Assembly (NCBI GenBank): GCA_016926395.1
Contig: JAFGOT010000019.1
Span: 1-29,146, forward strand
DNA: 29,146 nt
From: Candidatus Woesearchaeota archaeon
Lineage (GTDB): Archaea > Nanobdellota > Nanobdellia > Woesearchaeales > SKGA01
Reading direction: 5' to 3'
The translations under genes and the position numbers were made by a program. Positions 2,040-26,523 of the stretch are shown in pieces; positions within the stretch are counted from its first letter, which is position 1; every line of letters begins with the position of its first letter. The notes under the pieces were generated by a model, which worked only from the letters and a program-made list of their open reading frames with translations, did no database searches and was not told the origin of the DNA.

Positions 2040-3527
2040 ATGAACAAATTTAGACAATTAGGTATAGATGAGGATATTTTGTCCTCTATAGAAAATCTTG
2101 GTTTTAGCGAACCAACTGAAATTCAACAAAAAGCAATTCCTGTTGTAATCCAAAAAAAGGATTTGATTGCAGGTAGTGCTACTGGTAGTGGAAAAACTCT
2201 TGCTTTTGGAGCAGGAATAATTCAACACATAAGAAAGGGCGCAGGATTGCAAGCTCTTATTTTAGCACCAACAAGAGAATTAGCTGAACAAATTAGTGAA
2301 TCTCTAAAAACATTTGCTAAACATAAAAAATTAACTGTAGTTTCTATTTATGGTGGTGTTTCACTTAATCCTCAATTTTCTGCACTACAAAAAGCAGACA
2401 TTGTTGTTGGAACTCCTGGAAGAATATTGGATCACATGCAACGTGAAACTATTAATTTAACCAAAGTTAAACATTTGGTTCTTGATGAAGCTGATCGAAT
2501 GCTTGATATGGGTTTTTTAGATGATGTGCGGCGTATTATGAGTCAATGTCCAAAAGAAAAACAAACTCTTCTTTTCTCAGCAACTATCTCTCAAGATATT
2601 AGAGATTTATCTAGAAATTTTATGATTGAGCCTGTTAATATTTCTGCAACTCCTATGGTTGATCCAAGTAAATTAAAACAAGTTTACTACCAAGTTAGTG
2701 GTCCTTTAAAGTTTTCTTTACTTTATCATCTTTTGGCTAATGATACAAAAGGCGGTCTTGTTATGATTTTTTGTAACTCCAGACAGATGGTTGAAACTGT
2801 TGCAAAGAACCTTAAGAAAAACGGGATTGATGCTATGGGTGTTCATGGTGGTCTTTCACAAAACAGACGAAGTGACACTGTAAGTGGTTTTAACAAAGGT
2901 AAAATTACTGCTCTTGTTTGTACAGATGTGGCTGCTCGAGGTCTTGATATTCCTGGAGTTTCGCATGTTTATAATTATGACATTCCAAATGATACAAAGC
3001 AATATGTTCATCGAATTGGCCGAACTGCTCGAGCTGGTAAAGATGGTCTAGTTGTTAATCTTTTATCTCAAAGAGATCATGAGAATTTTGGAAAAGTGGT
3101 TTATGATCACAAAGATTTCAAAATAGAACGAGCTGATCCTCCTGTTGTTAAAAGAATAGAAACTTCTGCTGCTTCAAGCAATGCACGAGGTAATGGTAGA
3201 GGAATGTCAAGAAGTTCTTTCCGTGGTGGCGATCGTCAAGATGGTCGAGGCCGAGATAGAATGAGAACTCAAGGTGAACGTTCACGTCCTTTCGAAAGAA
3301 GAGAAGGTGGAAGTTCTGCTTCTCGAGGTCCATCTCATGGTGGTTCTTCTCGAAGCTCTGATGCTAGACCTCAAGGTTCTGGTTTTAGATCTCGTGGAGG
3401 TCAAGGCGGTCCTTCTCGAAGTTCTTTTGGTTCTCGAGGTTCTTCTGATAATCGTTCACACTCAAGTGATCGATCTCGTCCTAGAATGGGCGGTAATAGA
3501 AGTAACTCCTCTAATCGAAGAGATTAG
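2040..3527 (+). CDS. DEAD-box ATP-dependent RNA helicase (CshA/DeaD-like) with R/G/S-rich disordered tail
   Basis: Q motif GFSEPTEIQ, ATGSGKT, PTRELA, GTPGR, LDEADRM, SAT, ARGLD and HRIGRTARAG are all present. The last ~120 aa are a low-complexity RGS-rich tail. Confidence 0.97.
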   Translation: MNKFRQLGIDEDILSSIENLGFSEPTEIQQKAIPVVIQKKDLIAGSATGSGKTLAFGAGIIQHIRKGAGLQALILAPTRELAEQISESLKTFAKHKKLTVVSIYGGVSLNPQFSALQKADIVVGTPGRILDHMQRETINLTKVKHLVLDEADRMLDMGFLDDVRRIMSQCPKEKQTLLFSATISQDIRDLSRNFMIEPVNISATPMVDPSKLKQVYYQVSGPLKFSLLYHLLANDTKGGLVMIFCNSRQMVETVAKNLKKNGIDAMGVHGGLSQNRRSDTVSGFNKGKITALVCTDVAARGLDIPGVSHVYNYDIPNDTKQYVHRIGRTARAGKDGLVVNLLSQRDHENFGKVVYDHKDFKIERADPPVVKRIETSAASSNARGNGRGMSRSSFRGGDRQDGRGRDRMRTQGERSRPFERREGGSSASRGPSHGGSSRSSDARPQGSGFRSRGGQGGPSRSSFGSRGSSDNRSHSSDRSRPRMGGNRSNSSNRRD

Positions 3528-3552
3528 ATTTTTTTATTTTTTATTTTAAAAT
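3528..3552. terminator. Oligo-T terminator region between convergent genes
   Basis: T-tracts (attttttttattttttatttt) follow the helicase stop directly; the opposite gene stops at 3553. Confidence 0.55.
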
Positions 3553-3804
3553 TTATTTTCTTTTATTCTTAAAACATTCATCACAATAAACTTCTGGATT
3601 TCTAGGTTTAAATGGTAAAATGAATCTTTTTTTACACCTTATACATGTAACTTCGGTTGGCCATTTTCTCGCGTTTCCTTTCTCCTTTTCTCTGTCAAAA
3701 TTAATATGTTTATTGAACATTTGAAGACGTGGATTGGTTTTGGATTTAGTTGTGGCTGTTTTTTTAGTTTGAGGTCTTTTTTTTGCTAGTGTTGGTTTTT
3801 TCAT
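3553..3804 (-). CDS. Small basic zinc-ribbon protein (CxxC-x17-CxxC-like family)
   Basis: VTCIRCKKRFILPFKPRNPEVYCDECFK gives CxxC-x16-CxxC. Lys-rich N-terminus, with AGGA upstream of the ATG. Confidence 0.8.
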   Translation of the reverse strand: MKKPTLAKKRPQTKKTATTKSKTNPRLQMFNKHINFDREKEKGNARKWPTEVTCIRCKKRFILPFKPRNPEVYCDECFKNKRK

Positions 3805-3826
3805 TTTTTATCCTTTATTTTAATAT

Positions 3827-3858
3827 GTTTATATACTTTTCAGCTAAGTTTATATACT
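3827..3858. promoter_or_regulatory. Divergent promoter with duplicated GTTTATATACT (TATA-like)
   Basis: 11-bp direct repeat at 3827-3837 and 3848-3858 (21-bp period) between the zinc-ribbon and kinase starts. Confidence 0.5.
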
Positions 3859-3906
3859 CTTTGTTAAGAATATCATTAGTTTCTTATATTGTAGGATAGT
3901 ATTAAA

Positions 3907-6096
3907 ATGTTACCAAAGTCACAAGAAAGAATTATGCATTATAAGGATGTTTTATGTTCTATTCCAAGGGAGAACTTTGTTCTCCAAGAATTATTTGGAA
4001 GTGATTTTTTTAGTGGTGTTGCAGTTGTTACAAATGAGAAATTGGCAGGTAGGCTAGAAGATATTAAATTTTTAGACTCTTTAGAGCCTTCTTTAAGAGA
4101 GAGATTTCTAAAGGAGGGAAAAATACTTTCTGCGATAGATCATCCTAATATTCCTAAGGTTTATGATATTATTGAGCATGATGATATTCTGTTATTTAGG
4201 TCTGAAAATATTGAAGGTTTCACTTTAAGAGAGATTTTAGATGAATTAAAAATAAGAAAGCAATCTTTTCCTGAGGATGCTGCTCGTTTTATTATGACAA
4301 AAATTATTTCTGCTTTGAACTATGCACATAATAATTTAAAATATCATAATTCTATCTCTCCACTAATTCATTGTGATATAAAACCCGAGAATATTATTTT
4401 GCAATTAGATGGATTTAAACGTTCTGATGGTCTAAATGATTTTTCTTTAAAACTGATTAATTCCTGTTCGTTTAATCCTTATTTGATTGATTTTGGTATT
4501 GCAAAATTCAAAGAAGAAATAAATGATTCAAGCGGGACTCTTTATTATCTTTCACCCGATCAATTAAATTCAAAATCTCTTGATTGGAGAACTGATATTT
4601 ATCAATTATCTTTGGTTTATTTTGAAATGTTATCTGGTGTTACTCCTTATTCTTATCTTTCCAGACCTAATATTTTAAAATCAAAAAAAAATTCTGATTT
4701 TCGAGTTCTTAAGCGTTATAATATCTCCTCTTCTAATAGGCATTTTATTGAAAAAGGAACTTCATTTTCAGAAAAAAGATTTTCATCTGAATCGGATTTT
4801 ATTTCAAGTTTTCGCAAATTAAACAAACGTGCAAATATTAATAATTTTGTTCGTAAGAATAAAACGCCTGCGCTGGTTATTCTCGCTATTATATTATTGG
4901 TGTCTTTATTTTTTCCAACTTATGCTTACATTGATTATAAAACAAACAGTATTGATGCTATTGTTAATAAAATTAATTCTAATCCTGATCCTAGTTTTGA
5001 TGATCTAACTACTGCATTACATAAAATTCAAAAGCGTGGTTTTGAAAAAAAATATATTGAACCTTTGTTTGCGGGAGATTTTAGAGATAAGGAAACTGGA
5101 GAACCTCTTTATCCAAGTTACTTAGATTCTAATGGTGATTGGGTTTTATCAAGCAAAGACGAGACTGAATCAGGGGTTTTTGTTGGTTTGCTTTTTGAAA
5201 AATCTAATGATTATCCTCAACTTCTTCCTTATGCTATTGAGTATGCAAAACCTTTGTTGAACTCTAGTTATGAGGGATCTCAGCCTTTAAGATTTTATTA
5301 TGGATTAATTCCTGCTTACAAAGCAACTGGTGATGATATTTATTTAATCAAATTAATTAATATTTCTAACTCTTTGATTTCGGATATGAATAAACGACAG
5401 GGATTATTTATGAATGAAGATCTTTTTGTATGTGATTTCTTACTTGATATATACACTTTGACTGGTTATGATTACTATTTTAATTTTGTTGATTCTTATA
5501 TGCGTGGTTATCTATCAAACAATGTTGATGATGATGGTTATGTTTATTCTCTTTCTATGTCTAATTTCACTTTACCTTCTGGCTTAGTTCTTCCTGATGA
5601 CAAAAGTGGTTTGGCTATAATAAAGATGGGGAATCATAATTTGGGGGAGTTTGTTTCTGTTAATGAGTTAAATGAATCTGATTTTAAATCTTCAACTTCC
5701 GTTTTTTCAGTTGATTACTTGGTTCTAATTGATTTATTGAGTTTTTTAGTTAATCTAACTGAAGATGATTTTTATATTGATTATTATGCTTTTTTAAGAG
5801 ATTCTTATTTTGAATATCAAATTGATGATTTTGTTTTTATTTCATACAATACTTTTATTGATTATCCTCTTGATTCTCTTTCAAAGGTTTATTCTATTAA
5901 TGTGTTTTCTGATGACTCTTATTTTGTCAATAAAAAAATTCAAGCATTATTTAATTCTAATATTAATTTAGAATCTAAGAATGGTTTGCTTAGCGGTGTT
6001 GCTTTGCTTGCTTCAGGCAGGATCTATGATAATTCATTAGATTCTTATAAGAACCAAACTTACATTTTAGCTGATTATTATTTTCTAGAAATATAA
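3907..6096 (+). CDS. Single-pass receptor-type Ser/Thr protein kinase with C-terminal degenerate GH88-like (alpha/alpha)6 barrel
   Basis: Kinase motifs: RERFLKEGKILSAIDHPNI, HCDIKPENI, LIDFGIAK, SGTLYYLSPDQ, DIYQLSLVYFEMLSGVTPY. A TM helix (about aa 321-342) follows a basic patch. The outer domain has YPSYLDSNGDWVL..ESGVFVGLL, AYKATGDDIY, IYTLTGYDYY and terminal ADYYFLEI, matching the order of GH88 motifs (WTxGFxxGxLW ... ADYYFLEAL). Confidence 0.88.
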   Translation: MLPKSQERIMHYKDVLCSIPRENFVLQELFGSDFFSGVAVVTNEKLAGRLEDIKFLDSLEPSLRERFLKEGKILSAIDHPNIPKVYDIIEHDDILLFRSENIEGFTLREILDELKIRKQSFPEDAARFIMTKIISALNYAHNNLKYHNSISPLIHCDIKPENIILQLDGFKRSDGLNDFSLKLINSCSFNPYLIDFGIAKFKEEINDSSGTLYYLSPDQLNSKSLDWRTDIYQLSLVYFEMLSGVTPYSYLSRPNILKSKKNSDFRVLKRYNISSSNRHFIEKGTSFSEKRFSSESDFISSFRKLNKRANINNFVRKNKTPALVILAIILLVSLFFPTYAYIDYKTNSIDAIVNKINSNPDPSFDDLTTALHKIQKRGFEKKYIEPLFAGDFRDKETGEPLYPSYLDSNGDWVLSSKDETESGVFVGLLFEKSNDYPQLLPYAIEYAKPLLNSSYEGSQPLRFYYGLIPAYKATGDDIYLIKLINISNSLISDMNKRQGLFMNEDLFVCDFLLDIYTLTGYDYYFNFVDSYMRGYLSNNVDDDGYVYSLSMSNFTLPSGLVLPDDKSGLAIIKMGNHNLGEFVSVNELNESDFKSSTSVFSVDYLVLIDLLSFLVNLTEDDFYIDYYAFLRDSYFEYQIDDFVFISYNTFIDYPLDSLSKVYSINVFSDDSYFVNKKIQALFNSNINLESKNGLLSGVALLASGRIYDNSLDSYKNQTYILADYYFLEI

Positions 6097-6098
6097 TT

Positions 6099-6117
6099 GC
6101 CCAAGGTTCGCTTGGGC
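6099..6117. terminator. GC-rich hairpin between convergent kinase and peptide genes
   Basis: GCCCAAG-GTTCG-CTTGGGC forms a perfect 7-bp stem; an A/T tract at 6118-6132 reads as oligo-T after the peptide stop. Confidence 0.65.
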
Positions 6118-6132
6118 TTAAATAAAAATAAT

Positions 6133-6339
6133 TTAACAACAACTAGCTGATGCAGTGCATGAAATGTGAGGACACCAACTACATTTATACCAACATCCTG
6201 CTGCTAATGGTTGAACATATGTGTACATTGTGCTTGTTCCATCTGGATTCACTGCTTCGGTTTCATCCAAAGCCATTACGCTTGTCATGCTAACAACTAA
6301 AATAGCAACTAGTGCTAAAAGAATTAATATTTTCTTCAT
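6133..6339 (-). CDS. Secreted Cys-rich pre-pro-peptide (candidate signalling or antimicrobial peptide)
   Basis: Sec signal MKKILILLALVAILVVSMTSVMA, acidic pro-region ending VQPLA, and core AGCWYKCSWCPHISCTASASCC with 6 Cys in the last 20 aa. RBS GAGGTG (6352-6347) lies 7 nt from the ATG, and the gene has its own TATA (6383-6376). Confidence 0.85.
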   Translation of the reverse strand: MKKILILLALVAILVVSMTSVMALDETEAVNPDGTSTMYTYVQPLAAGCWYKCSWCPHISCTASASCC

Positions 6340-6346
6340 ATAAATT

Positions 6347-6405
6347 CACCTCTGTTTATCCCTTGCAATTTGCCGTATAAAAACCTTATTGATGTTTTGG
6401 GATAA
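6347..6405 (-). promoter_or_regulatory. Peptide-gene promoter: TATA flanked by inverted GGGATAA boxes, plus RBS
   Basis: Minus strand: TTTTTATA at 6383-6376, GGGATAA at 6362-6356, GAGGTG at 6352-6347. An opposite-orientation GGGATAA lies at 6399-6405. Confidence 0.6.
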
Positions 6406-6410
6406 TTTTT

Positions 6411-7286
6411 CTAGAATTGTATCGCTAGTATTGATGATAATATTCTTTTGATATTCTTATTTATTATGTTCATTTCTGTTTTTAATTCTTTTAATGATTT
6501 AATTTCTTGTTCCATTTCTTCTATTGAGCTTTTTATTCTTGTATATTCTTCAGTCGAGAATTGATAATGTAGATTGTATGTTTGGGTTATTATGTCCGAT
6601 ATTTTTGAGAATATTTTGTTTGTTTCTAAAGATATTATTTTACCTTCTTTTGTTTGTTCTAGGATGTTTGTGAATTCGTTGTTTATGTTATTTATGTTAC
6701 TTATTATGTTGTCATAAAAAGTTCCTGTTTTTTTATTTTCTTTAATTATTATTCGTCTGCAGTAATTAGATAATCTTGATATCGTGGTTTGGTATAATAA
6801 GTTGCTTTCTGTGATGTTGTTTTCATTTATCATTATTGACTCTGTTTTTCTTGCATATTCATTTGTCATTCGAAATATTCTTCTAAATAAATTATTGAAT
6901 TGATCACATGGAGGGTTAGATATGTTTCTTATTGTTGTGCTTTGATTACTTTGTTCTATTATTTCAAATCCAAGTTGTTCTTCATTTAGATATGTGTGTA
7001 TTTGTTTTGTTATGTCTTCGCAGTCAAAATTAATTTTTATTTCGTCATATCCTTGGTTGTGTAATGCTAAAAGAATGTCTTTCCAAGCGTGTTGGTTTTT
7101 TTCGTTTATTATTATTGTTTTTCTTTTAATTTCGTTGTTTTCATTTATTGGTTTAATTAGGAGCCCTTTATCATCTTCAAATACATCTATTTCATCACCT
7201 TTTTGAAGATTACACTCTTTAACCCAATTTGATGGTAATGATATTGTCAGACTGCTTGGTCCGTGGGATATTATTTTTCGTCTCAT
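6411..7286 (-). CDS. AbrB/MazE/SpoVT DNA-binding domain plus PhoU-like helical domains (archaeal phosphate-uptake-regulator family)
   Basis: MRRKIISHGPSSLTISLPSNWVKECNLQKGDEIDV is the typical swapped-hairpin AbrB N-terminus, followed by helical PhoU-like repeats (LFRRIFRM, RLSNYCRRII). Start moved from 7301 to ATG 7286. Confidence 0.85.
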   Translation of the reverse strand: MRRKIISHGPSSLTISLPSNWVKECNLQKGDEIDVFEDDKGLLIKPINENNEIKRKTIIINEKNQHAWKDILLALHNQGYDEIKINFDCEDITKQIHTYLNEEQLGFEIIEQSNQSTTIRNISNPPCDQFNNLFRRIFRMTNEYARKTESIMINENNITESNLLYQTTISRLSNYCRRIIIKENKKTGTFYDNIISNINNINNEFTNILEQTKEGKIISLETNKIFSKISDIITQTYNLHYQFSTEEYTRIKSSIEEMEQEIKSLKELKTEMNIINKNIKRILSSILAIQF

Positions 7287-7290
7287 GTAT

Positions 7291-7352
7291 ATTATGTACA
7301 TAATGTCATACTTAAATATATATTTTACTATTTTCTGGGATAACTTTAGGTG
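7291..7352. promoter_or_regulatory. Divergent promoter with 14-bp palindrome, TATA, GGGATAA box and RBS
   Basis: ATTATGTACATAAT perfect palindrome at 7291-7304; TTAAATAT at 7312-7319; GGGATAA at 7337-7343; AGGTG at 7348-7352. Confidence 0.55.
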
Positions 7353-7361
7353 TAATTTATC

Positions 7362-7673
7362 ATGGGAAAAATAATAAGTTCGAAAAGGAGCGGATCAGAA
7401 ATTTTATTTGAGGTTGAAGTAGGACCTGAAGAAGCCACTATTTTAAATGGTCATTATGATGATGTTCACCTTTTTACTGAACGGGTTGCAAACATTGATG
7501 CGAACATTTCTTCAAGGGGAAAAAATTCAGCTACAAAATACTTTCTTATTCCTCGTCAACTTAGAAAGAATCTTGATTATTTTCAACCTGTTGGTTGTCA
7601 AAAAATAGAGACGGGAGATAAAGTTATCTTTATTTATGTTGTTGATAAAGATGGTAAGCGAGTAACTACTTAG
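7362..7673 (+). CDS. Small conserved DPANN-type protein with AbrB-like hairpin, divergent partner of the AbrB-PhoU gene
   Basis: RBS AGGTG. The segment SRGKNSATKYFLIPRQLRK resembles the AbrB-type 'xxxxIPxxxR' signature. Confidence 0.7.
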   Translation: MGKIISSKRSGSEILFEVEVGPEEATILNGHYDDVHLFTERVANIDANISSRGKNSATKYFLIPRQLRKNLDYFQPVGCQKIETGDKVIFIYVVDKDGKRVTT

Positions 7674-7724
7674 TGTTGTTTTTTTAGTTATTCTTTTAAA
7701 TGGTTATTTTTTTCACTTATTTAT

Positions 7725-7967
7725 ATGGATTCAATACATGGACATGAGGTTATTACTTTTATCAAAGAATCAAAGCCACAAATTTCTAGACATAATTTGG
7801 AAATTGCAATCTCTAAGAAATTTGGGAGTGAAAGCATTTTTCATACTTGTGTTTTAAATAATCTTTCTGCTGCTGATTTAATTGCTTTTTTAGAGCGAGC
7901 AGGAAAATTAGTTGTTCGAAATGGTATTTCTTATATTAATTCGGATTTGATTTGCGATGATGAGTGA
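7725..7967 (+). CDS. yecH: YecH/DUF2492 family probable metal-binding protein
   Basis: SIHGHEV, KFGSESIFHTC, LxAADLIAFL.RAGK and terminal ICD match the YecH motifs (SIHGHEV..FG...FHTCS..C.H). Confidence 0.8.
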   Translation: MDSIHGHEVITFIKESKPQISRHNLEIAISKKFGSESIFHTCVLNNLSAADLIAFLERAGKLVVRNGISYINSDLICDDE

Positions 7968-8016
7968 ATTTTATGATTAATTTTATAAATAGATTTAGAA
8001 CTACGTAATACTTAAT

Positions 8017-8346
8017 ATGACTTTAACTAATATAGTTGGCAATGTCCAAGCAAAAGAAATTATGGATTATGTAGTTGAGCGATATGCTGAATCAGTTGAT
8101 AATTATGCTGCTAATATGGCTAGACTTCCTACAAAGGAGACCATCTTATCAGAAATTCAAGATTTAGCTGAATGTAACAATTGTGATGCTGTTAAATTAT
8201 TCCATCAGGTTACTGTTGACAAAGCATACCAAAAACAACTTGCAAATGCAGGTCTTCGAGTTAGTGCTGGTTTAATCGAGCCTAGTACTGAGTTAAAAAG
8301 ACAACGAGAACACAAGCAGTTTTTAGTGAATAAATATCAACAATGA
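8017..8346 (+). CDS. Hypothetical helical protein
   Basis: 109-aa ORF with a TATA-like TTTTATAAAT (about 7981-7990) about 27 nt upstream and an oligo-T after the stop. Confidence 0.7.
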   Translation: MTLTNIVGNVQAKEIMDYVVERYAESVDNYAANMARLPTKETILSEIQDLAECNNCDAVKLFHQVTVDKAYQKQLANAGLRVSAGLIEPSTELKRQREHKQFLVNKYQQ

Positions 8347-8377
8347 GTTGATTTTATTTTTTTTATTTTTTAGAATT
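8347..8377. terminator. Oligo-T terminator between convergent genes
   Basis: ttttatttttttttattttttag lies between the stops at 8346 and 8378. Confidence 0.5.
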
Positions 8378-9070
8378 TTATTCATCTTCCTCTTCAGTAA
8401 ATATTTCACCAAGAGTTGCTATTTTTTCATGTCTTTCTTTTCTTTTCTTATTGTGATCTTTTTCAAGAAGCATCAATATAACTCCTAAAAGTCCAAGTAT
8501 TATTATTGAGAATATGACATCTTTTCCAGTTAGTGCTTTCTCTTTAAGAACTTCAGGACTGCAAACATCTGAATTTTGTTTGTCATTTTCACCGATCGGT
8601 GCTTCATCTCTTGCTGTTGTTGTTTGATTATCTGTTTCTTTTTCTAAGACTATAGAATTATTATATGGTGAACTAGGATTTTTTTCCGGAATTGATGGGA
8701 TGTCAGCTGTTGTTGAAGATGGTTTTTGTGGTACTTCCCCGGGCACAAAAATTGTTAATTGTTGGTTAGTTACATTGATTGTGTCGTTTAATGTTATGTT
8801 TATTCTGTATATTCCCGGTGTTCTTGGAGCATATATACGACACGTTTGGTAACAATTGTTATCAACACAATATGAACAAGAAATAGTATTTCCATTTGGG
8901 TCTGTTATGAATGAATAGATATCTCTGCTAGTTCCTGGATTTAGATTCATGGATGTGATGGTGAGTGTTGGTAGGCTGTTAACGATGTTTGCAGTAGCTA
9001 ACGCTGCACTAACAAGTCCTATTAGTAAAAGAAATGCTGCCAAATAAGGCACTATTTTCGTGAAAACCAA
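8378..9070 (-). CDS. Membrane-anchored surface protein (signal peptide, small Cys-containing Ig-like domain, P/S/T linker, C-terminal TM with basic tail)
   Basis: TTG 9070 is preferred over ATG 9094 because GAGGT lies 8 nt upstream. Signal IVPYLAAFLLLIGLVSAALA; CSYCVDNNCYQTC; TM VIFSIIILGLLGVILMLL; several N-x-S/T sequons. Confidence 0.75.
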   Translation of the reverse strand: MVFTKIVPYLAAFLLLIGLVSAALATANIVNSLPTLTITSMNLNPGTSRDIYSFITDPNGNTISCSYCVDNNCYQTCRIYAPRTPGIYRINITLNDTINVTNQQLTIFVPGEVPQKPSSTTADIPSIPEKNPSSPYNNSIVLEKETDNQTTTARDEAPIGENDKQNSDVCSPEVLKEKALTGKDVIFSIIILGLLGVILMLLEKDHNKKRKERHEKIATLGEIFTEEEDE

Positions 9071-12941: not shown

Positions 12942-13088
12942 TTTGTTACACCCAAACCCCTTATAATATGTATATACTTTATTTTTGTTTCATTTATAAA
13001 TTTTGGTGTTGTGTTTAGTTTTGTTTTTTCTTATTTTTTCTTTATTTAGTTGAATTTACAAATTACCACTGTCTTGTAGTATGAAAAC

Positions 13089-13150
13089 TTTATAAACTTG
13101 GACGGGATAAATGTATACTGTTTGGGATAAAAAGTTCCTGGTTGGGATTA
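13089..13150 (+). promoter_or_regulatory. TATA box followed by three phased GGGAT(A/T)A boxes
   Basis: TTTATAAA at 13089-13096; GGGATAA at 13104 and 13124, GGGATTA at 13144, giving an exact 20-bp period. Confidence 0.65.
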
Positions 13151-13211: not shown

Positions 13212-14102
13212 ATGAAATTAAAACTATTATTGACTATGTTTGTATTGGTCGGTCTTCTATCTGTTGGTGTTGTTCTTGCAGAAGATGGAACAACTCAGGT
13301 AACAATTCTTAACACTGCCCCTAGTGCAGGAACTCCTCAGTTAAATGATGCTGTTACTGGTGATGAAGTTATGACTTTAACTGCAAATGCTACGACAACT
13401 ATAACTTGTTTTGGTACTGCTTCCGATGCTGATGGCTTAACTGACATTACTGGTGTGAGTGGTGTTATTTGGTCTGCAAACTCAGCTTATGGCTCTGCAG
13501 ATGCTGAACCTAATCATTATAGTGATGCTGATTGTGGATATAATTCGGGTGATGGTTCTTACTCGTGTAGTTTTGACGTTCAATTTTATGCTGATGCAGC
13601 TCTTTGGACTTGTAATGTAACTGCAACAGACAATGCTGCTGATACTGGATCTGCAACTGATACTGCAACCATGAATCAATTAATGGCTTTAGATATTCCT
13701 AACAACACAGACATCGACTTTGGATCTTTATCCGTTGGTCAAAGTGCTGAAGGTGGATCTTTAAATGTTGTATTTGAAAATCAAGGTAATGTTGCATTTG
13801 ATGTAGATGTTGACGCTTGGGAAACTGCAGGTAACTCAAACAGTGCAAATTCATTTAGTTGTACTTCAGGAAACATTGGTATTGGTCAATTAAAAGCTGA
13901 CCTTGTTGATCAAGCATCTTATGCTGCATACACTTACACAATGACCACTTCTGGTTATGTAACTGTTGATGCGAGTTTAGCTCAACAAACAAGTGGTTCA
14001 ACTCCTACAAGCGACACTCTATACTTCGGTCTTCAAATCCCTGGTAGTGTTAGTGGTACTTGTACTGGTGTATTCTCCTTGCAAGCAACTGCAGATGTAT
14101 AA
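13212..14102 (+). CDS. Secreted acidic Cys-containing surface protein; candidate major filament/S-layer-like subunit (module A + terminal module C)
   Basis: ATG 13212 follows the RBS GAGGTG. Signal MKLKLLLTMFVLVGLLSVGVVLA; no TM anchor; T/S/D/G/A-rich. Shares both modules with the next gene and is followed by a strong terminator. Confidence 0.85.
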   Translation: MKLKLLLTMFVLVGLLSVGVVLAEDGTTQVTILNTAPSAGTPQLNDAVTGDEVMTLTANATTTITCFGTASDADGLTDITGVSGVIWSANSAYGSADAEPNHYSDADCGYNSGDGSYSCSFDVQFYADAALWTCNVTATDNAADTGSATDTATMNQLMALDIPNNTDIDFGSLSVGQSAEGGSLNVVFENQGNVAFDVDVDAWETAGNSNSANSFSCTSGNIGIGQLKADLVDQASYAAYTYTMTTSGYVTVDASLAQQTSGSTPTSDTLYFGLQIPGSVSGTCTGVFSLQATADV

Positions 14103-14135
14103 GGCTTAAGCCTTATTTTTTTTATTTTTTTATTT
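14099..14135 (+). terminator. Intrinsic terminator/attenuator
   Basis: Perfect 18-bp palindrome ATAAGGCTTAAGCCTTAT (14099-14116) overlaps the stop codon and is followed by long T-tracts. Confidence 0.75.
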
Positions 14136-14183
14136 CTATTTTTTAAGATAATTTTTTAAAGAACTCTTTCTAACTTTAATTCA

Positions 14184-16739
14184 ATGAAGTTGGGTATTTT
14201 GGGTTTGATGTTATTATTTTTATTAGTTTTAACTTCTTTAGTTTCTTCTCTGAGTTTTACAAGCAAGGTGGATGTAACTCCTAACTATCCTGGTTTTAAA
14301 GATGATATAAGTTGTTCTTGGGCGGGTAGTGGAGATGTTACTTCCACAACTCTTTATTGGTATAGAAATGGTGTTTTATATGATACAATAAGTTCTGCCA
14401 CATCTCCTCAAGTTATTTCTTGGAAAACACATTCAAGCGGTCAAACTTGGAATTGTAGTGTTGTTTTAAGTGATGGTTCTTCATCAATAAATGATTGGGA
14501 TTTAGTTCTTATAGGGAGTACTAATTCTGCTCCTGTCATAAACTCGGCAGAATTTAATGATGCTTCTGATAGTGGAGATGAGAACATAACAATTAACTAT
14601 GTTGGAACACATGCTGTTAGGTGTTTTGGAACTGTTACTGATGCAAATGGTAATTATGATTTAGAATCTGTTAGTGCTGTTTTATATCATTCAAGTTCTA
14701 GCGTAGGTGATGTTGACGACCAAAGTGATCATTATACTATACCTTTTTGTAGTTTTAATTATTCTGGAGACTATACTTGTAATACTTATATGACTCCATC
14801 TGCTCTAGCTGGAACTTGGACTTGTCAGGTGACTGCAGTTGATCAAGGAGCGGCATCTGGAACGAAAACCGATACTGTGATTGTGTATAAAATTTCTCCA
14901 CCTGATAATCCTCCTAATATTACAAGCGTTGAATTTAATGATGTTGGTGATAGTGGGGATGAAAACATTACTTTACCTGAATCCGGAACTTATCCAGTAA
15001 GATGTTTTGGTTATGCGAATGATGTTGATGGGAATTCTGCAATAACATCTATCAATGCTACTTTTTATCATCAATCATCGTCATATTCTGCTAGCGATAA
15101 TCCAACTTATCATTATTCTAACTCGTCTTGCTCTTATACTACTTCCACTGGTTATTATGAATGCATGGCAACATTCGAATATTACGCCGCTAATGAAACT
15201 TGGTATTGTAATGTTACTGCAAAAGATAATACTTCTTTAACCGATAGTGCTATTGATTCTGTTGTTATTTACAAACCAGTCATTCCTCCAATTATTCCTT
15301 ATTTTTCAAGTCTTGAGTTTAATGATGTTGGTGATAGTGGTGATGAATCCATAACTTTAACTTCTATTCAAACAAAACCTGTTCGTTGTTTTGGTTATGT
15401 TGTTGATAATGAAGGTCCAATTCATATTGATTCGTTAAATGCAACTTTTTATCATTCTTCATCTTCTTCATCTTCATCTAATAATAATTATGTGCATTAT
15501 ACAAATTCTTCATGTTATTATAGTAGCTCAACGGGAGAATTTGGGTGTGAAACTTATTTGTGGTTTTACGCAACACCTGGAACTTGGTATTGTAATGTAA
15601 CTGTTATTGATAATGATTTAAACATTAATTCTTCAACAGACAGTGTTGTTGTTAGTGCTGGTCCTCCTGCAGATGTAAGTTTTTTAGCTAATCCTTTCAT
15701 CACTCCACAATATCCTTCTAGAACTGAAAATTTAGTTTGTTCTTGGACTGAAAGCTTAGATGTCGAAAACAGAACTGTTTATTGGTATAAAAATGGAGCT
15801 CTAGATAGGACTGAATATCCTATTGCTTCAACTTCTACAGTTTTATCTGCAGACACTAAAAATGGTGAAACTTGGAACTGTACTGTTTTACTTGCTGGTG
15901 CAAATCTCACCGCGACTGCTAGTGATTTGGTTGTAATTGGGAGCTCTCCTCCAAATGCTATTCCTGTTATATCTTCAGTTCAATTAAATGAGGTCGGTGA
16001 CAGTGGTGATGAATCCCTACTTTTGCAAGCAGGCACAACGCAACCAATGAGGTGTTTTGGAACTGTTACTGATGCAGATGGTAATTCCGATATCAATACT
16101 GTTCGTGCAGTTTTTTATTCTAGTTTGGTTTTAGATGTTTCTCCTGATGCACCTAGAAATCATTATTCAAATTCTTCTTGTAGTTATGATACTGGAACTG
16201 GAGCTTATGAGTGTTCTGTTCCGATTTATTTTTATGCAAACCCTGGTACTTGGTCTTGTAAGGTTTATGTAAATGATAGTGTTTCAAATTTAGCATTTAG
16301 CTCTGACTCTGCAACGATGGGTACTTTACTTGCGATGGACATTCCTGATGGAACAAATATTGATTTTGGAGGAATGGTTGTGAATGAACAAAAAATATCT
16401 CCTAGTTTGAATATTTCTATTTTTAACATTGGAAATGTTCTTTTCGATGTTGATGTTGATACTTGGTTAACGGGAGGTGATTCTTCGTCTGCAAATTCTT
16501 TAAACTGCACAGTTAATAATATTCCTACGTCTAATTTTAAATCAAGCTTTACTTATGGTTCTTACTCCTCTTATACTTCGATGCTTATTTCTGGTTATTA
16601 TCGATACGATGCGAATCTTGATCGGCAAATATCTGGTTCAACCCCTACTCATAAAACGTTATATTTAGGTCTTCAAACACCCAGTGACGTTCAAGGTATT
16701 TGTAGTGGCGTTATTTCTGTCCTCGGGGTTGCTTCTTAA
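14184..16739 (+). CDS. Secreted repeat surface protein, paralog of 13212..14102 (modules B-A-A-A-B-A-C)
   Basis: Four copies of (E/Q)(F/L)N(D/E)xxDSGDE..(V/M)RCFG..HY..W.C.V (starting near nt 14550, 14931, 15315, 15981). Two copies of TPxYP..CSW..YWYxNG..TWNC. C-terminal DIPxxTxIDFG..SANS..QxSGSTPT..LYxGLQxP domain shared with the upstream gene. No TM anchor. Confidence 0.88.
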   Translation: MKLGILGLMLLFLLVLTSLVSSLSFTSKVDVTPNYPGFKDDISCSWAGSGDVTSTTLYWYRNGVLYDTISSATSPQVISWKTHSSGQTWNCSVVLSDGSSSINDWDLVLIGSTNSAPVINSAEFNDASDSGDENITINYVGTHAVRCFGTVTDANGNYDLESVSAVLYHSSSSVGDVDDQSDHYTIPFCSFNYSGDYTCNTYMTPSALAGTWTCQVTAVDQGAASGTKTDTVIVYKISPPDNPPNITSVEFNDVGDSGDENITLPESGTYPVRCFGYANDVDGNSAITSINATFYHQSSSYSASDNPTYHYSNSSCSYTTSTGYYECMATFEYYAANETWYCNVTAKDNTSLTDSAIDSVVIYKPVIPPIIPYFSSLEFNDVGDSGDESITLTSIQTKPVRCFGYVVDNEGPIHIDSLNATFYHSSSSSSSSNNNYVHYTNSSCYYSSSTGEFGCETYLWFYATPGTWYCNVTVIDNDLNINSSTDSVVVSAGPPADVSFLANPFITPQYPSRTENLVCSWTESLDVENRTVYWYKNGALDRTEYPIASTSTVLSADTKNGETWNCTVLLAGANLTATASDLVVIGSSPPNAIPVISSVQLNEVGDSGDESLLLQAGTTQPMRCFGTVTDADGNSDINTVRAVFYSSLVLDVSPDAPRNHYSNSSCSYDTGTGAYECSVPIYFYANPGTWSCKVYVNDSVSNLAFSSDSATMGTLLAMDIPDGTNIDFGGMVVNEQKISPSLNISIFNIGNVLFDVDVDTWLTGGDSSSANSLNCTVNNIPTSNFKSSFTYGSYSSYTSMLISGYYRYDANLDRQISGSTPTHKTLYLGLQTPSDVQGICSGVISVLGVAS

Positions 16740-16759
16740 ATTGTATTTATAAGCCAAGC

Positions 16760-16774
16760 CGGAATATTTATATA
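16760..16774 (+). promoter_or_regulatory. BRE/TATA-like promoter for the giant adhesin gene
   Basis: ccggaatatttatata lies upstream of ATG 16857, which is preceded by GGGGGGAG. Confidence 0.45.
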
Positions 16775-16856
16775 GAAATCCAAATTGAACTTCCTTAAGA
16801 GAGGTAACAAATAGTTATTATCTTTGTTTTTGGTTAAACAATCTCGGGGGGAGATT

Positions 16857-19800
16857 ATGCAAGTACAGCGAAAAAACGTATTTATACTGGGAATTCTTTT
16901 ATTAATGACTTTAGTTTTATCCACTACTGCTCAAGCGAGCACGACACTTTTTACGCAAGCACCGGGTCCTAGTTCCACGCCTCTTATTACTCTAGTGGAA
17001 CTAAATGGAAGTGCTTTTTTGTTAGAAAATAATTATTTGTCTGTCACACTTCAAGATCCTGAAGTTGATATTGACACCGTGCATCTAAGTCTTTTTGATC
17101 CCAGTTCAAACATGATTGTAGATGAAGATATTTCTCTATCTGCAGGCTATCCTGTTGGTGTTATTTATAAATTCGATTCATCTATTTTCTCCCTATCAGT
17201 AACTGGAACTTGGTCTATTAATATAACTGCAAATGATAGTGTAAATCATATTTCCACTCAAATAGTAACTTTTAATGTGGTAGTAAAAGATGATGCGGCT
17301 GTTTGGTCTCCTTTATCTGATCAAAATATTAATGAAGATTCTGTTGATGGAACTGTGGTGTATTCCAACCTAAAAAGTCTTTGTACTGATGTTGATACTC
17401 CAATAAAAACATTTACTGCATCAACAATTAGTCCTTATTTTGATGTATATTTCTCTGCTCTTGACAATGATTTGCGAGTTGAAAATATTAGTTCTAATGT
17501 TAATAGTGATGATGTTGGTTTTCAGCAAGTTACTGTTTATTGTAATGGTGTTGGCTCTTCATTTGATGTGTATATTAATTCTATTAATGATGATCCAACT
17601 TTAGCTCTTATGCCTGCACAAACTATTGATGAAGACACACTAAATAATGTTCTTCCTTTAGATTTGGCAACTTATGCTAGTGATGTTGATGGTGATTCTT
17701 TAACCTTCACTGCTACAGGCACTGCTGATCTTAGTGCTGTTGCTATTCCTGATGGTCTTGGTGGAGTCTATATTACTGTTAGCACTTTAACTCCTAATTT
17801 TTATGGTGATGTTTTGGTTGATGTAACTGTTAGTGATGGTAATGGTGGATCTGCTTCTAGATCTTTAACTGTTCATGTTAATGATGTTGATGAAACTGCT
17901 GTTTGGGCTCCTTTATCTGATCAAAATATTCCTGAAGATTCATTTGACGGAACAATTATTTATCCTAACGTTGAGTCTCTTTGTACAGATGTTGATAATC
18001 CAACAAAAACTTTAGTTGCAACTACTACTAGTCCTTATTTTGATGTGTATTTTTCTGCATTTGATGATGAACTTAGAATCGCAAACTTAACTGCAAATAT
18101 TAATGGTGATTCAATCTCTCCACAACCTATTGAATTATTTTGTAATGGTGTTGGAACTTCATTTGATTTAACAATTGATCCTGTTAATGACAATCCTTTA
18201 TTTGGAGTTCTTCCAGCTCAGACAATTGATGAAGATTCTGTAAATGTTGTTCTACCTTTGGACTTGGCAACTTATGCTAGTGATGTTGATGGTGATTCAT
18301 TAACTTTTACTGCAACGGGTGTCCCAGAATTAAGTGCTGTTGCAAATCCTGATGGTTTAGGAGGAGTTTACTTAACAGTTAATTCTTTATCTGCAAATTT
18401 TTATGGTGATGTGGTAATTAATATTGATGTTACTGATGGTAACGGAGGATTGACATCTCAAGGATTATTAATTCACATTCTTAATGTTGATGATGCTGCA
18501 GTTTTGAATTTGCCTGCAAGTTTAAGCGTTAATGAAGATAGTGATGATGGGACTGTTGTTCTTAGTAATGTTAATTCTGTTTGCACCGATGTTGACAGCC
18601 CAGTAGTGGTAAGCGCAACTGATACAAGTTCATTTTATGATTTACAAATAGTTGGTTCTGACTTAGTAATAAATAGTTTGGATGCAGATTACAATGATGT
18701 GGTTGGAACTGCAGTAAATTTCAACTGTAATGGTGTTTTAGGTTCGACTCTTCTTTATGTTCAACCAGTAAATGATAATCCTATTATTAATGGTTTTACG
18801 GGTGCGACTACTGCTTCTGAATATTCTTTAGTACAGTTAACAATTGATGCTAGTGATATTGATTTAGATACATTATCTTATTCTGTTATAAATCCTGTTG
18901 GTGACATGTCTTTTACTGGAAATGTTTTCTCTTGGACTCCTCAGACTTCGGATGTTGGAGTAACTAATGTTAATATTGAAGTAACTGATGGCTTAGCGAC
19001 TGATAATATTACTATTCCTATTACTGTTTTTAGAAATGTTGACTTTGATAATATTTTGATTACAACACCAAACTTTGCACCTTTAGTTGATGTGCAAGAT
19101 GGTGATAATATTGGTTTCTTGATGCCAGGAGACACGATGACTATCGATCTTGATTTAATCAATTCATTAAGTGATGGTCTTTCTGATATGACGATTACTG
19201 CGCAAATAAGTGGTGTTGATGTTGATCAAACGCCCCAATTTAATTTAGCAGCAGGAAGTAATACGAGTAAATCTCTTAGTCTAAACGTGCCTTATTCAGT
19301 TGCATCAGGAAATAATAATCTTGTATTAACCGCATCTGGTTATTCAACTGATGGTTTGGGAAATAATTTCCCTAGACAAGTAGTTTATACTATGCCTATT
19401 TCCATAAACAAAGATTCAAGAAAAATAATTATTCAACAAGAAAGTTTTACTCCAAGCACTGTAACTTGTGTTAGGGATACAACTCTTTCATTTGAATTAG
19501 TAAACATAGGCTTTAATGATGAAACTACTGCTAACACCTTAACCGTTACAATTCCTGGAATTGATTCTTGGCAAACAACTAATGTTGTTGTTCCTGCTGG
19601 AAGCACAAACAATGCAATTCAAATAAACGTTCCTCTAACTGTTCCGTATGTTACTCCTCCGGGTTCATACAATGCGCAGATTCAATTCGTCTATGATAAT
19701 GGGGTAAGTACTGCGAATGCAACATATCCTATAGTTGTAGATTTATGTCCTGTTCCTGCAAGTCTTGGAACGTATGATGAAGATGAAGTTATTGGAACAA

Positions 19801-22262: not shown

Positions 22263-22657
22263 TGAAAACTACTAGAAATGTTTTAATTACTAATGACGAA
22301 CCTAGTAGTGTTTTTTTATTATCTGAATTTTTTAAGATTTATCAGCTTTCAAAAGATGATTTGTATATTAATTCGCTAGTTGCTTATAGTGGTTTAGAAG
22401 CTAAACATGTTGTTGAAAATCGTGAAGATCTTGATTTAGTTATAATGAATTGGGAAATGCCAAAAATGTCTGGTATTCATGCAACTGAGTTAATCAGGGA
22501 GATAAGACCAGATTTACCTGTTTTATTGTATTCTGCTTATGTTGGCAATCCTGTTTATGAACCTTTGATAAAATCATATTTTGACGATTCTATTCCTAGC
22601 CCTATAAATATTAATTCATTCACTAAAATTGTTGATAAATATTTGTTAAAGAAATAA
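22262..22657 (+). CDS. Stand-alone pseudo-receiver (CheY-like fold, phosphoacceptor Asp replaced by Asn)
   Basis: LITNDEP, LDLVIMNWEMPKMSGIHA, PVLLYSAY and SIPSPIN, against the canonical VDD, MDxxMP and KP. TAATG overlap with the adhesin stop. Confidence 0.85.
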   Translation: MKTTRNVLITNDEPSSVFLLSEFFKIYQLSKDDLYINSLVAYSGLEAKHVVENREDLDLVIMNWEMPKMSGIHATELIREIRPDLPVLLYSAYVGNPVYEPLIKSYFDDSIPSPININSFTKIVDKYLLKK

Positions 22658-22659
22658 CT

Positions 22660-23049
22660 TTAAATTACATATCTTTCTAGTATTTCTTGAAATTTTATTT
22701 CGTTTATTGGTTTTTCAAGACAACTGTTAAAACAGTTTGATGATTTATAAATTTCATTTATTCCCATATGTGCTGAATGTAGTATTATTGGAATATTTTT
22801 GTATTGATCTTTTATTTTTTTGGCTGCTTCTTCCCCATTTAATACTGGCATTTTCCAGTCCATAAATATTAATGAGATTTCTTTCTTATTATTCATTAAT
22901 TTATTAGTTATTGTTATTGCTTCCAAACCATTTGTTGCTTCATAAACATTTATTCTATTTTCTGCAGTCTGATAGTCTTCTATTTTTATTCTTAATAAGT
23001 ATCTATTTGGAATCTCATCGTCTACTATCGAAACGATTTTTTCATTCAT
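22660..23049 (-). CDS. Stand-alone CheY-like response regulator receiver (canonical)
   Basis: IVDDEIPNR, LIFMDWKMPVLNGEEA, IILHSAH, LEKPI. ATG 23049 is preferred over 23103 because a TATA-like TATAAATA lies about 25 nt upstream. Confidence 0.88.
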   Translation of the reverse strand: MNEKIVSIVDDEIPNRYLLRIKIEDYQTAENRINVYEATNGLEAITITNKLMNNKKEISLIFMDWKMPVLNGEEAAKKIKDQYKNIPIILHSAHMGINEIYKSSNCFNSCLEKPINEIKFQEILERYVI

Positions 23050-23099
23050 TAATGTGCTTTTTTGTTTAGAAATATTTATAGTTATTGTTTTGAGTATTT

Positions 23100-26016: not shown

Positions 26017-26523
26017 ATGGGATTAGAAGAAGAGTTTTCAAAGATTTATCTTGCTTCTCAGGCAGATGGTTTGATGTTATTTGTGAAAAATTCTAACCTC
26101 TATGTTTTTGATGGTAAGATGAACATTCATTTCTTTCCTTGTTCTACTTCTAAAAATGGTTTTGGATTTGAGCTTAATTCTCAAAAAACACCCTCTGGTC
26201 TCTTTCGTATTGCTCAAAAGATTGGCGATAAGCAGCCCTTGGGAATGGAGTTCATTGAAAGAAAGATTGCTGGTCTTGCTCACATTAACAGAACAAAAGC
26301 TCCTTTAGAATCAAAAGTTTTAACTAGAATACTTTGGCTTTCAGGTCTTGACAAAGAAAACTCTAACACACTTAACAGATTTATTTACATTCACGGAACT
26401 GCAAACGAGTGGGCGATTGGAACGCCAATCACAAATGGTTGTATTGTGATGAGAAACAATCATATTGTTCAACTTGTTGACATTGTTGTTGAAGGAACTT
26501 TAGTATATATTTTTGGTGAATAA
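26017..26523 (+). CDS. L,D-transpeptidase (YkuD) catalytic-domain protein
   Basis: KTPSGLFRI, LTRILWLSG, YIHGT..IGTPITNGCIVM, EGTLVYI; the catalytic His (HGT) and Cys (GC) are present. No signal peptide. Confidence 0.9.
   Translation: MGLEEEFSKIYLASQADGLMLFVKNSNLYVFDGKMNIHFFPCSTSKNGFGFELNSQKTPSGLFRIAQKIGDKQPLGMEFIERKIAGLAHINRTKAPLESKVLTRILWLSGLDKENSNTLNRFIYIHGTANEWAIGTPITNGCIVMRNNHIVQLVDIVVEGTLVYIFGE

Follow-up and report, generated by a model that had tools for sequence, protein, structure and literature searches.

Do four adjacent genes on an archaeal contig make up a signalling circuit, or do they only lie side by side? The stretch analysed here (hereafter, the window) comprises positions 1 to 29,146 of the forward strand of contig JAFGOT010000019.1, from the Candidatus Woesearchaeota archaeon assembly GCA_016926395.1. 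Its positions 3907-7673 hold the four genes in question, namely those for a receptor kinase, a convergent secreted Cys-rich peptide, an AbrB-PhoU-like regulator and a divergent small protein. A preliminary description of the locus proposed a circuit leading from the peptide, through a barrel ectodomain and the kinase, to AbrB-type regulators and surface genes, and named adjacency as the only direct link. All four open reading frames (ORFs) are present as described, and adjacency is now superseded as the sole link by (i) the synteny of the kinase and peptide genes across genomes, (ii) their co-occurrence, (iii) a regulator pair that follows rearrangements of the locus, and (iv) a conserved palindrome. 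The linkage and the shared operator of that circuit were thus borne out by computation, and peptide-barrel binding and regulator phosphorylation enter below as proposed steps. As judged from sequence, the module looks like an undescribed cell-signalling circuit, and our tentative reading, to which we give slightly less than an even chance, is that of an autoregulated circuit of secreted peptide, receptor Ser/Thr kinase and transcription factor. The literature that we searched held no relevant description of such a peptide-kinase-regulator module.

The source DNA has a G+C content of ∼32% and belongs to a genome of ∼1 Mb (1.017 Mb) that is 82.5% complete; homologues of the window proteins carry the labels Nanoarchaeia, Woesearchaeota or Nanoarchaeota, that is, DPANN archaea. 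The genes and domains of the module, with protein lengths in amino acids (aa), are the following.

3907-6096 (+): Hanks-type Ser/Thr receptor kinase, 729 aa (ORF, Pfam, transmembrane prediction and model)
∼4087-4755 (+): cytoplasmic kinase domain, residues 61-283 by Pfam Pkinase
∼4870-4929 (+): transmembrane helix, a single hydrophobic helix at residues ∼322-341
4930-6093 (+): extracytoplasmic GH88-like (alpha/alpha)6 barrel, ∼388 aa, by predicted structure
6133-6339 (-): secreted six-Cys pre-peptide, 68 aa (ORF, homologues and family alignment)
6411-7286 (-): AbrB-PhoU-like regulator, 291 aa from its MRRK start (the longest ORF extends to 7301, 296 aa)
7362-7673 (+): small conserved protein, 103 aa, a candidate DNA-binding factor (MGKIISSKR ... 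RGKNxATKYFLIPxxLR ... CQKIE)

Linkage, rarity and possible mobility of the module

Kinase and peptide genes adjoin each other in convergent orientation in 12 independent loci with DNA (the window, L001, L003, L008, L009, L010, L012, L013, L015, L016, L029 and L050; the source miscalled the peptide gene in L008 and left it uncalled in L009), which span G+C contents of 20-50% and ectodomain identities of 27-41%. Wherever a barrel-kinase locus extends beyond the kinase gene, a convergent homologous peptide gene is present, except in L032 (genome G402), in which no ORF follows the kinase and a peptide homologue lies on another contig of the same genome. The preliminary description had named orthologous kinases without a neighbouring Cys-rich ORF among the points that would count against the circuit; L032 is the only such case among these loci, and its genome still holds the unlinked homologue. 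The synteny expected by that description was thus found, with kinase and peptide syntenic in 12 loci and co-occurring in a 13th genome and with the regulator pair following rearrangements, and it amounts to the co-inheritance of signal gene, kinase and regulator that marks autoinducer-type systems. One further contig without DNA carries a convergent 63-aa gene beside the kinase. Two loci, L004 and L031, are uninformative, ending or turning chimeric at the kinase gene, and L031 was left out of the synteny tally; at its positions 4400-4903, archaeal sequence of ∼31% G+C (the kinase being cut at 623 aa) passes abruptly into high G+C, so that this contig is probably chimeric. A second kinase, on contig C30 beside a weak "peptide" match, was rejected as a further case, the neighbour being an unrelated thioredoxin-like lipoprotein.

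Both families are rare. The barrel family comprises 20 clusters among 1.84 billion representatives, nearly all of its full-length members (∼700-800 aa) being kinase fusions, and none of 400 further genomes of the class, six congeneric ones among them, yielded the barrel. The peptide family, with 12 clusters among 5.8 billion representatives, is as rare as the kinase family. The divergent pair of AbrB-PhoU and small-protein genes adjoins the peptide gene in seven loci, is cut by contig ends in three, and is displaced but stays within 3 kb in L015, where it lies on the other side, and in L016, where an inserted gene splits it off. Since kinase and peptide almost always bring the regulator pair with them and the reverse does not hold, the dependence is one-way. 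The conserved upstream 185-aa and 147-aa genes of L001 and L003 were rejected as part of the core, being unlinked in this genome; L050 has a 182-aa gene at the same upstream position.

The preliminary description also looked for co-variation of peptide and ectodomain. Distances of the peptide core track those of the ectodomain most closely (r 0.85), followed by the kinase domain (0.77), the small protein (0.72) and the AbrB-PhoU protein (0.61), so that the direction fits, although the signal is weak because all pairs correlate through shared descent. One alternative is that the genes have no functional link, common descent or a shared mobile element on which they hitch-hike being all that keeps them side by side. 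All loci indeed come from one broad lineage plus one island, and their non-independence inflates the statistics. However, the identities of 27-41% and the G+C range imply long divergence, during which the flanks have otherwise been scrambled, a non-coding operator has been conserved, and both genes have been retained even when unlinked, and we therefore consider this alternative highly improbable.

One complete copy of the four-gene module comes from a record whose label names a Desulfobacter chromosome of 6.9 Mb (L008/L030, OY762069.1, G401:C1 ∼2,580,000-2,640,000). There it lies inside a low-G+C block (36-41%) of at least 60 kb, whose genes include IS66-like ORFs, restriction-modification and helicase genes, a ParB-like gene and two RadC genes, and which ends at a serine-recombinase-like ORF (2638397-2640037), where G+C rises from ∼38% to ∼50% and the Rnf genes start. 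This arrangement suggests cross-domain transfer on an integrative element, and hence a module that moves between domains, provided that the assembly is not chimeric.

The receptor kinase, its barrel ectodomain and the six-Cys peptide

The receptor kinase of the preliminary description was recovered with each of its parts, namely a Pfam Pkinase domain, a transmembrane helix and a C-terminal barrel domain. The match to Pkinase (PF00069: E 4e-27, 95.7 bits against a cut-off of 31.7) identifies a Hanks-type kinase, and its active site is intact, with K54, E70, the HCDIKPxN motif (155-162) and DFG (195-197) invariant (five homologues); the Gly-rich loop is degenerate.

The model of the barrel domain, with a predicted local distance difference test (pLDDT) value of 91.5, has an (alpha/alpha)6 fold, whose nearest structures are GH88 unsaturated glucuronyl hydrolases (Foldseek TM 0.68/0.72, E 3e-12). 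By VIA, the barrel matches 3wiw with Z 29.9 and a root-mean-square deviation (rmsd) of 3.0 Å over 322 residues, and 1vd5 with Z 28.8; behind GH88 rank AGE-type epimerases (Z ∼23) and LanC-like proteins (Z 15). While the barrel thus has the six-hairpin fold of GH88, its sequence falls outside the family, as PF07470 scores 12.2 bits in the window protein and 24.4 and 23.2 bits in two relatives, below the cut-off of 26.6, and the match to the barrel covers profile positions 34-104 only. Across the barrel family, several positions are invariably Asp, Tyr or Asn; the alignment contains no invariant Cys or His of the kind that forms the Zn site in LanC or prenyltransferases. A low-confidence profile alignment places the His-Asp of the 3wiw HDLGF motif, the Asp of which we take to be the first GH88 catalytic residue, on a variable, non-acidic barrel position, and the same weak alignment stops short of the region expected to hold the second catalytic Asp. 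A near-invariant barrel Asp was considered for this second residue and withdrawn, because the spacing in 3wiw does not fit.

The peptide likewise bears out the preliminary description of a convergent secreted Cys-rich product, as a Sec-type N-terminal signal and a six-Cys core are both kept in the homologues. From its N terminus it comprises (i) the predicted signal (∼1-23), (ii) a variable spacer, and (iii) a Cys core that forms the C-terminal end of the protein, GC-x3-C-x2-C-x4-C-x5-CC in the window and C-x3-C-[SP]WC-x4..9-C-x5-CC across the family. Outside Cys and Trp the core is highly variable, and Ser and Thr are not conserved. Two natural variants have four Cys each, L010 lacking C1 and C6 and L013 lacking C2 and C4. 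If Cys are lost as bonded pairs, C1-C6, C2-C4 and C3-C5 is the only consistent connectivity, and these paired losses in the family sequences argue for a putative disulfide-knotted secreted peptide. Because Cys are lost in pairs and Ser and Thr are not conserved, they also argue against thioether (lanthionine) chemistry. The C-terminal CC was considered as a prenylation-type motif read by the alpha/alpha barrel, and this was rejected, since the barrel has no conserved Zn-site residues and prenyltransferases are not among its top structural matches. Peptide and barrel are both predicted to be extracytoplasmic, the one from its signal peptide and the other from the transmembrane topology.

Since the barrel has the fold of a GH88-type glycan enzyme, a glycan is at least as natural a ligand for it as a peptide. 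The barrel could therefore sense a surface or host polysaccharide, and the kinase would then act through the regulators on the peptide gene as an output, the peptide being a defensin- or bacteriocin-like antimicrobial or a host-directed effector and the adhesins of this genome being switched on as well. We regard such a glycan or contact sensor as the strongest of the alternatives, if rather unlikely, with several observations on its side: the barrel has unmistakably the fold of the six-hairpin glycan enzymes; weak GH88 Pfam matches recur in three members; the peptide is laid out like secreted disulfide-rich toxins or defensins; competition or accessory traits typically show a patchy, island-borne distribution such as this one, which includes a bacterial integrative island; an adhesin operon is preceded by phased boxes (see below); and strict kinase-peptide co-occurrence is equally explained if the peptide is a dedicated output. 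On the other hand, the conserved core contains no immunity or export gene, the peptide core varies outside Cys and Trp as pherotype signals do, and an output gene need not stay tail-to-tail with its sensor across G+C contents of 20-50% while the regulators move. The unbroken tail-to-tail linkage of peptide and sensor and the pherotype-like variability of the core thus favour the reading in which the peptide is the ligand.

The shared compartment and strict co-occurrence of peptide and barrel would also suit an extracytoplasmic enzyme or chaperone that acts on the peptide, by maturation, glycan attachment or removal, or folding, with the kinase reporting or gating its activity. The invariant Asp, Tyr and Asn residues, from which a retained working pocket may be deduced, point the same way. 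Nevertheless, the His-Asp of HDLGF in 3wiw has no conserved acidic counterpart in the barrel (by the low-confidence alignment), the barrel lacks a conserved Cys/His Zn site as in LanC or prenyltransferases, and we know of no precedent for an enzyme-kinase fusion of this type, so that we judge a maturation role improbable.

A further alternative is a ribosomally synthesized and post-translationally modified peptide (RiPP) system, in which the kinase and the alpha/alpha barrel would correspond to those of class III/IV lanthipeptide synthetases and the peptide to their precursor. The NCBIfam LanL model weakly matches the kinase domain (E 2e-8, 33 bits against a cut-off of 650), barrel hairpins show weak LanCL sequence matches (E ∼0.004), and Cys, Ser and Thr abound in the peptide core. 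However, the kinase lies inside the cell and the barrel outside it, with a transmembrane helix between them; a lyase domain is absent; in place of a leader, the peptide carries a Sec signal; Zn-ligand Cys and His are missing from the barrel; LanC-like structures reach Z 15 against Z 30 for GH88; and Ser and Thr are not conserved, whereas Cys are lost in pairs. Membership in the class III/IV synthetases was accordingly rejected on topology, Zn ligands, lyase, leader and fold ranking, and we hold a RiPP pair to be the least probable of the explanations weighed here.

The regulator pair and the GGGATAA operator

The regulator probably starts at 7286, since all homologues begin with MRRK or MKRK. 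It comprises an AbrB/MazE domain (1-46), an alpha/beta domain (55-121) and a six-helix PhoU-like bundle (127-290). The first of these is recognized by Pfam (PF04014, MazE_antitoxin: 36.7 bits against a cut-off of 24.7, E 4e-9), and in the model (pLDDT 87), which has β-strands within residues 5-46, MazE 1ub4_C is among the structural matches. For the bundle, a Pfam search of the regulator returned no PF01895 (PhoU). Nevertheless, five distant relatives carry PF01895 and bear the JGI name "phosphate uptake regulator", the family profile matches PhoU 2i0m at E 0.005, and the top six Foldseek rows for the model are PhoU proteins, with modest scores (E 0.01-0.08, TM 0.43-0.63 by target). The AbrB part of the earlier assignment thus stands on Pfam, whereas the PhoU part is without a Pfam match of its own and draws on modest structural matches and on the relatives. 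Given the AbrB/MazE domain, PhoU proteins as best PDB matches and PF01895-bearing relatives, the label AbrB-PhoU is reasonable. No link to phosphate genes was seen at this locus.

The small protein is the most conserved of the four (47-69% identity across kinase loci). The preliminary description had called it AbrB-like, which sequence comparison does not uphold: an hhalign comparison with the AbrB-PhoU family gave a probability of 0.2%, Pfam, NCBIfam and PDB sequence searches returned no match, and the sole lead is structural, residues 43-99 of the Atlas model resembling MazE-type clusters (TM 0.53-0.61 by target). The protein was accordingly rejected as a paralogue of the AbrB domain, neither hhalign nor the PDB profile search having yielded anything. 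Of 401 genomes of the class, 19 have it, whereas the barrel is present in a single one. In genomes without the kinase it is paired with an AbrB-PhoU gene or with its own paralogue, often beside a KaiC-like ATPase; such a KaiC/RadA-like gene often follows the ∼100-aa gene, as in L018, L021, L025 and L051 (G403:C1 ∼29,000-31,200). In several of these genomes the ∼100-aa gene is divergent with its own paralogue and a GGGATAA palindrome, perfect in L021 and L028, lies between them.

The preliminary description noted a GGGATAA leader box shared by the peptide and small-protein genes. The motif occurs seven times in the window, against 2.7 expected, and 60 times in the whole 1.017-Mb genome; with so few copies genome-wide, the three near the module, at 6356(-), 6399(+) and 7337(+), lie far above chance within 1 kb. 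The relevant elements are the following.

6346-6390 (-): peptide-gene expression signals, with a B recognition element (BRE)/TATA-like AATAAGGTTTTTATA at 6376-6390 and a Shine-Dalgarno sequence AGAGGTGA at 6346-6353
6399-6425 (-): operator palindrome, imperfect here, GCGATAC-N13-TTATCCC (from comparison of loci)
7291-7343 (+): divergent promoter region of the regulator pair, with palindrome ATTATGTACATAAT at 7291-7304, TATA-like AAATATATAT at 7314-7323 and GGGATAA at 7337-7343

Copies are thus present at both genes as claimed. The copy at 6356-6362, between the peptide TATA and ATG and near the predicted transcription start, is not matched in position in other loci, and the element that locus comparison shows to be conserved is a palindrome, GGGATAA-N13/14-TTATCCC, always 8-12 nt upstream of the peptide BRE/TATA. 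Across loci, the peptide promoter itself combines a BRE/TATA-like AATAAGGNTTTTAT box with a strong AGAGGTGA ribosome-binding site, and both signals are visible in several loci besides the window, e.g., L001, L003, L008, L029 and L050. With up to two mismatches, the palindrome is found in 9 of 13 peptide upstream regions and in 3 of 2066 control windows (0.15%) taken from the same loci, giving a nominal P of ∼1e-23, which is inflated by the relatedness of the loci; at these protein distances non-coding DNA should be randomised, relatedness notwithstanding. In the window, the good half-site is GGGATAA at 6399-6405(+), and the distal half has decayed and overlaps the 3′ end of the AbrB-PhoU gene.

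At the regulator pair, the GGGATAA of 7337-7343 lies ∼20 nt downstream of the TATA and 25 nt before the ATG of the small gene. The same order of palindrome, TATA and (G)GGATAA occurs in L001, L003 and L050, and the kinase-less L019, L020 and L027 have it with TGGATAA or AGGATAA in place of GGGATAA. Further, two kinase-less genomes, G202 (L021) and G258 (L028), have a full palindrome between divergent paralogues of the small protein; of these, G258 (92% complete) returned no AbrB-PhoU match. We infer from this placement between its paralogues, including a genome without an AbrB-PhoU match, that the small protein is the probable reader of the box. With the operator conserved both at the peptide promoter and at small-protein genes, a binder of this kind would provide feedback.

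In genome G403, three palindromes were found, two of which precede genes of the module families (one of them an unlinked small-protein gene), while the third lies between isoprenoid-lipid genes. This last, a perfect GGGATAA-N14-TTATCCC at L051 7180-7207 (G403:C1 ∼32,180) between divergent UbiA-like prenyltransferase and polyprenyl synthetase genes, hints that the regulon of the small protein reaches lipid synthesis in G403. In the genome of the window, 16 of the 60 GGGATAA copies are intergenic, and besides the three window promoters a regulon search among them found none convincing; another near-perfect palindrome (C6:22304) was discarded, as it appears to lie in coding sequence.

Another promoter region of the window bears on the surface genes that the preliminary description named as the output.

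13088-13150 (+): possible output promoter, with TATA-like CTTTATAAAC at 13088-13097, then three direct boxes at 13104-13150
13212-22657 (+): operon downstream of the box array, encoding a secreted 296-aa protein, an 851-aa protein, a 1812-aa adhesin-like protein and a CheY-like receiver

The boxes read GGGATAA, GGGATAA and GGGATTA in a 20-bp phase and form the only such direct array in the 1-Mb genome. The 1812-aa protein is adhesin-like, with cadherin, Big_9 and He_PIG matches, and the CheY-like receiver is a single-domain protein. A phased triple array thus precedes a surface-adhesin operon here, which fits the proposed surface output; three other module-bearing genomes had no equivalent direct-repeat array.

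The proposed circuit and its relation to known systems

In the reading that we prefer, the circuit would belong to DPANN archaea, be self-contained and horizontally mobile, and run as follows. The pre-peptide may be exported by Sec, lose its signal and fold into a small knot with three disulfides, for which C1-C6, C2-C4 and C3-C5 are the likely bonds. The GH88-derived six-hairpin barrel of the single-pass Hanks kinase would detect it outside the cell, either directly or jointly with a glycan, and the active cytoplasmic domain of the kinase would then modify the co-encoded ∼100-aa protein and/or the AbrB-PhoU protein. In the former, Thr58 of the ATKYFLIP segment is nearly invariant and would be a candidate site. 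The small protein, with its family motif RGKNxATKYFLIP, would bind both the GGGATAA-N13-TTATCCC palindrome upstream of the peptide BRE/TATA and the lone GGGATAA in the promoter of its own gene. Archaeal activators usually bind upstream of BRE/TATA, and activation would be the presumed sign of this regulation. Binding at both promoters would close an autoregulatory loop, as in peptide quorum-sensing or bacteriocin-induction circuits, and in this genome the loop may also control the surface-adhesin operon with its three phased boxes.

Several points weigh against this reading. As to the ligand, a sugar is the default expectation, the nearest relatives of the ectodomain being glycan-acting enzymes; we know of no peptide receptor with a GH88-like fold; and the distance correlations are confounded by shared phylogeny. 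As to the regulators, the pair occurs as a general cassette in DPANN, in most cases without the kinase, and therefore needs no phosphorylation to work; no DNA-binding domain is demonstrable in the small protein by sequence; the kinase genome G402 returned no small-protein match; and on one short contig a response regulator takes the place of the AbrB gene next to the peptide. Moreover, searches of this genome, which is 82.5% complete, turned up neither a PP2C phosphatase nor an FHA reader.

The architecture of Gram-positive peptide autoinducer and bacteriocin-induction circuits (AgrD-AgrC-AgrA, ComC-ComD-ComE, PlnA-PlnB-PlnCD and nisin-NisK-NisR) is well established, and the module shares with it (i) a peptide gene clustered with a membrane sensor kinase and regulator(s), (ii) a repeat operator on the peptide promoter, which there gives feedback and here would do so, and (iii) an accessory, strain-variable distribution. 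The parts differ, however: the sensor there is a histidine kinase, here a Hanks Ser/Thr kinase; the regulators there carry receiver domains, here they are an AbrB-PhoU protein and an unclassified ∼100-aa protein; and the peptides there have a double-glycine leader, thiolactone or lanthionines, here a Sec signal and predicted disulfides. The host here is an archaeon with BRE/TATA promoters, and the relation of ligand to receptor is a putative one.

The plant pairs SCR/SP11-SRK and RALF-FERONIA likewise combine a single-pass receptor Ser/Thr kinase with a small secreted disulfide-rich peptide, linked to it in the case of the S-locus. In FERONIA, a malectin fold of carbohydrate-binding type serves as the ectodomain and has come to bind a peptide. 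The plant ectodomains have a fold unrelated to the GH88 barrel found here, the setting here is prokaryotic, and the output would be a neighbouring transcription factor, so that the likeness is one of analogy only, with homology limited to the kinase domain. By these comparisons the proposed circuit resembles the Gram-positive three-component and the plant peptide-kinase systems and is a member of neither, because sensor chemistry, regulators, peptide processing and domain of life all differ.

For the individual proteins, closer relatives exist. Phosphorylation of AbrB by PrkC, PrkD and YabT in B. subtilis is a precedent for an AbrB-type substrate of Hanks kinases. Bacterial Hanks kinases such as PknB and PrkC, with PASTA repeats, share the topology of kinase, transmembrane helix and extracellular sensor (PrkC and PASTA are described in PMC5786024 and PMC6213207), whereas here a GH88-like barrel stands in place of PASTA, a dedicated peptide gene is co-inherited, and a cell wall plays no part. 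The GH88 hydrolases (3wiw, 1vd5 and 2zzr) share the (alpha/alpha)6 fold over ∼320 residues (Z 29-30, rmsd 3.0 Å), with 11-17% identity to the barrel, which here is fused to a transmembrane helix and kinase and has no polysaccharide-utilisation context. Archaeal AbrB(SpoVT)-PhoU transcription factors named "phosphate uptake regulator" also have an N-terminal swapped-hairpin and a C-terminal six-helix PhoU-like bundle, and the PhoU family is counted among the putative transcription factors of P. furiosus (PMC6316755). The DPANN subfamily seen here differs by an extra alpha/beta middle domain, by a PhoU part that in this member is too diverged for Pfam, and by the divergent pairing of its gene with that for the ∼100-aa protein.

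If the reading holds, the module would be a peptide quorum-sensing or kin-recognition system native to DPANN and mobile enough to reach a Desulfobacter chromosome. DPANN archaea are obligate episymbionts with ∼1-Mb genomes, in which the sensing of partner or self is essentially uncharted, and to our knowledge no peptide-based communication has been demonstrated in any archaeon. A survey of quorum sensing in DPANN (PMC7567580) contains none of the terms "threonine kinase", "Hanks", "AbrB" and "cysteine" and thus does not cover the module. It is possible, although we hold it less likely than not, that this is the first prokaryotic pair in which an encoded disulfide-knotted peptide is sensed by a receptor Ser/Thr kinase via a repurposed glycoside-hydrolase barrel and feeds a new small archaeal transcription-factor family that reads GGGATAA palindromes. 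A glycosidase fold recruited as the sensor of a receptor kinase would be a new sensor architecture, and the ∼100-aa family with its GGGATAA palindrome, whose targets in DPANN genomes appear to be varied, a new family of transcription factors. With four small genes, a soluble ectodomain and an operator of 27 bp, the module is a compact unit that could be expressed and assayed in vitro without culture of the organism.

The remaining features of the region are minor. Between the convergent kinase and peptide genes, the promoter/terminator scan and the sequence reveal one element, and an Rfam scan of 3400-8500 found no RNA family.

6099-6117 (strand not assigned): GC-rich, terminator-like hairpin of 7 bp, followed on the minus strand by a T-rich tail

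Directly after the small-protein gene lies a gene for a YecH/DUF2492 metal-binding protein (7725-7967(+), E 3e-20), which is not kept in other module loci, and a YkuD L,D-transpeptidase domain is encoded at 26017-26523(+) (E 2e-15), in an archaeon presumed to be without peptidoglycan. Finally, lone response-regulator receiver genes recur near the module: two convergent ones in the window (22262-22657(+) and 22660-23103(-)), two just upstream of the kinase in L016 (3905-4824), and one beside the peptide on the P0003 contig. With no histidine kinase in view near them, these receivers are a possible cross-talk partner of the module.

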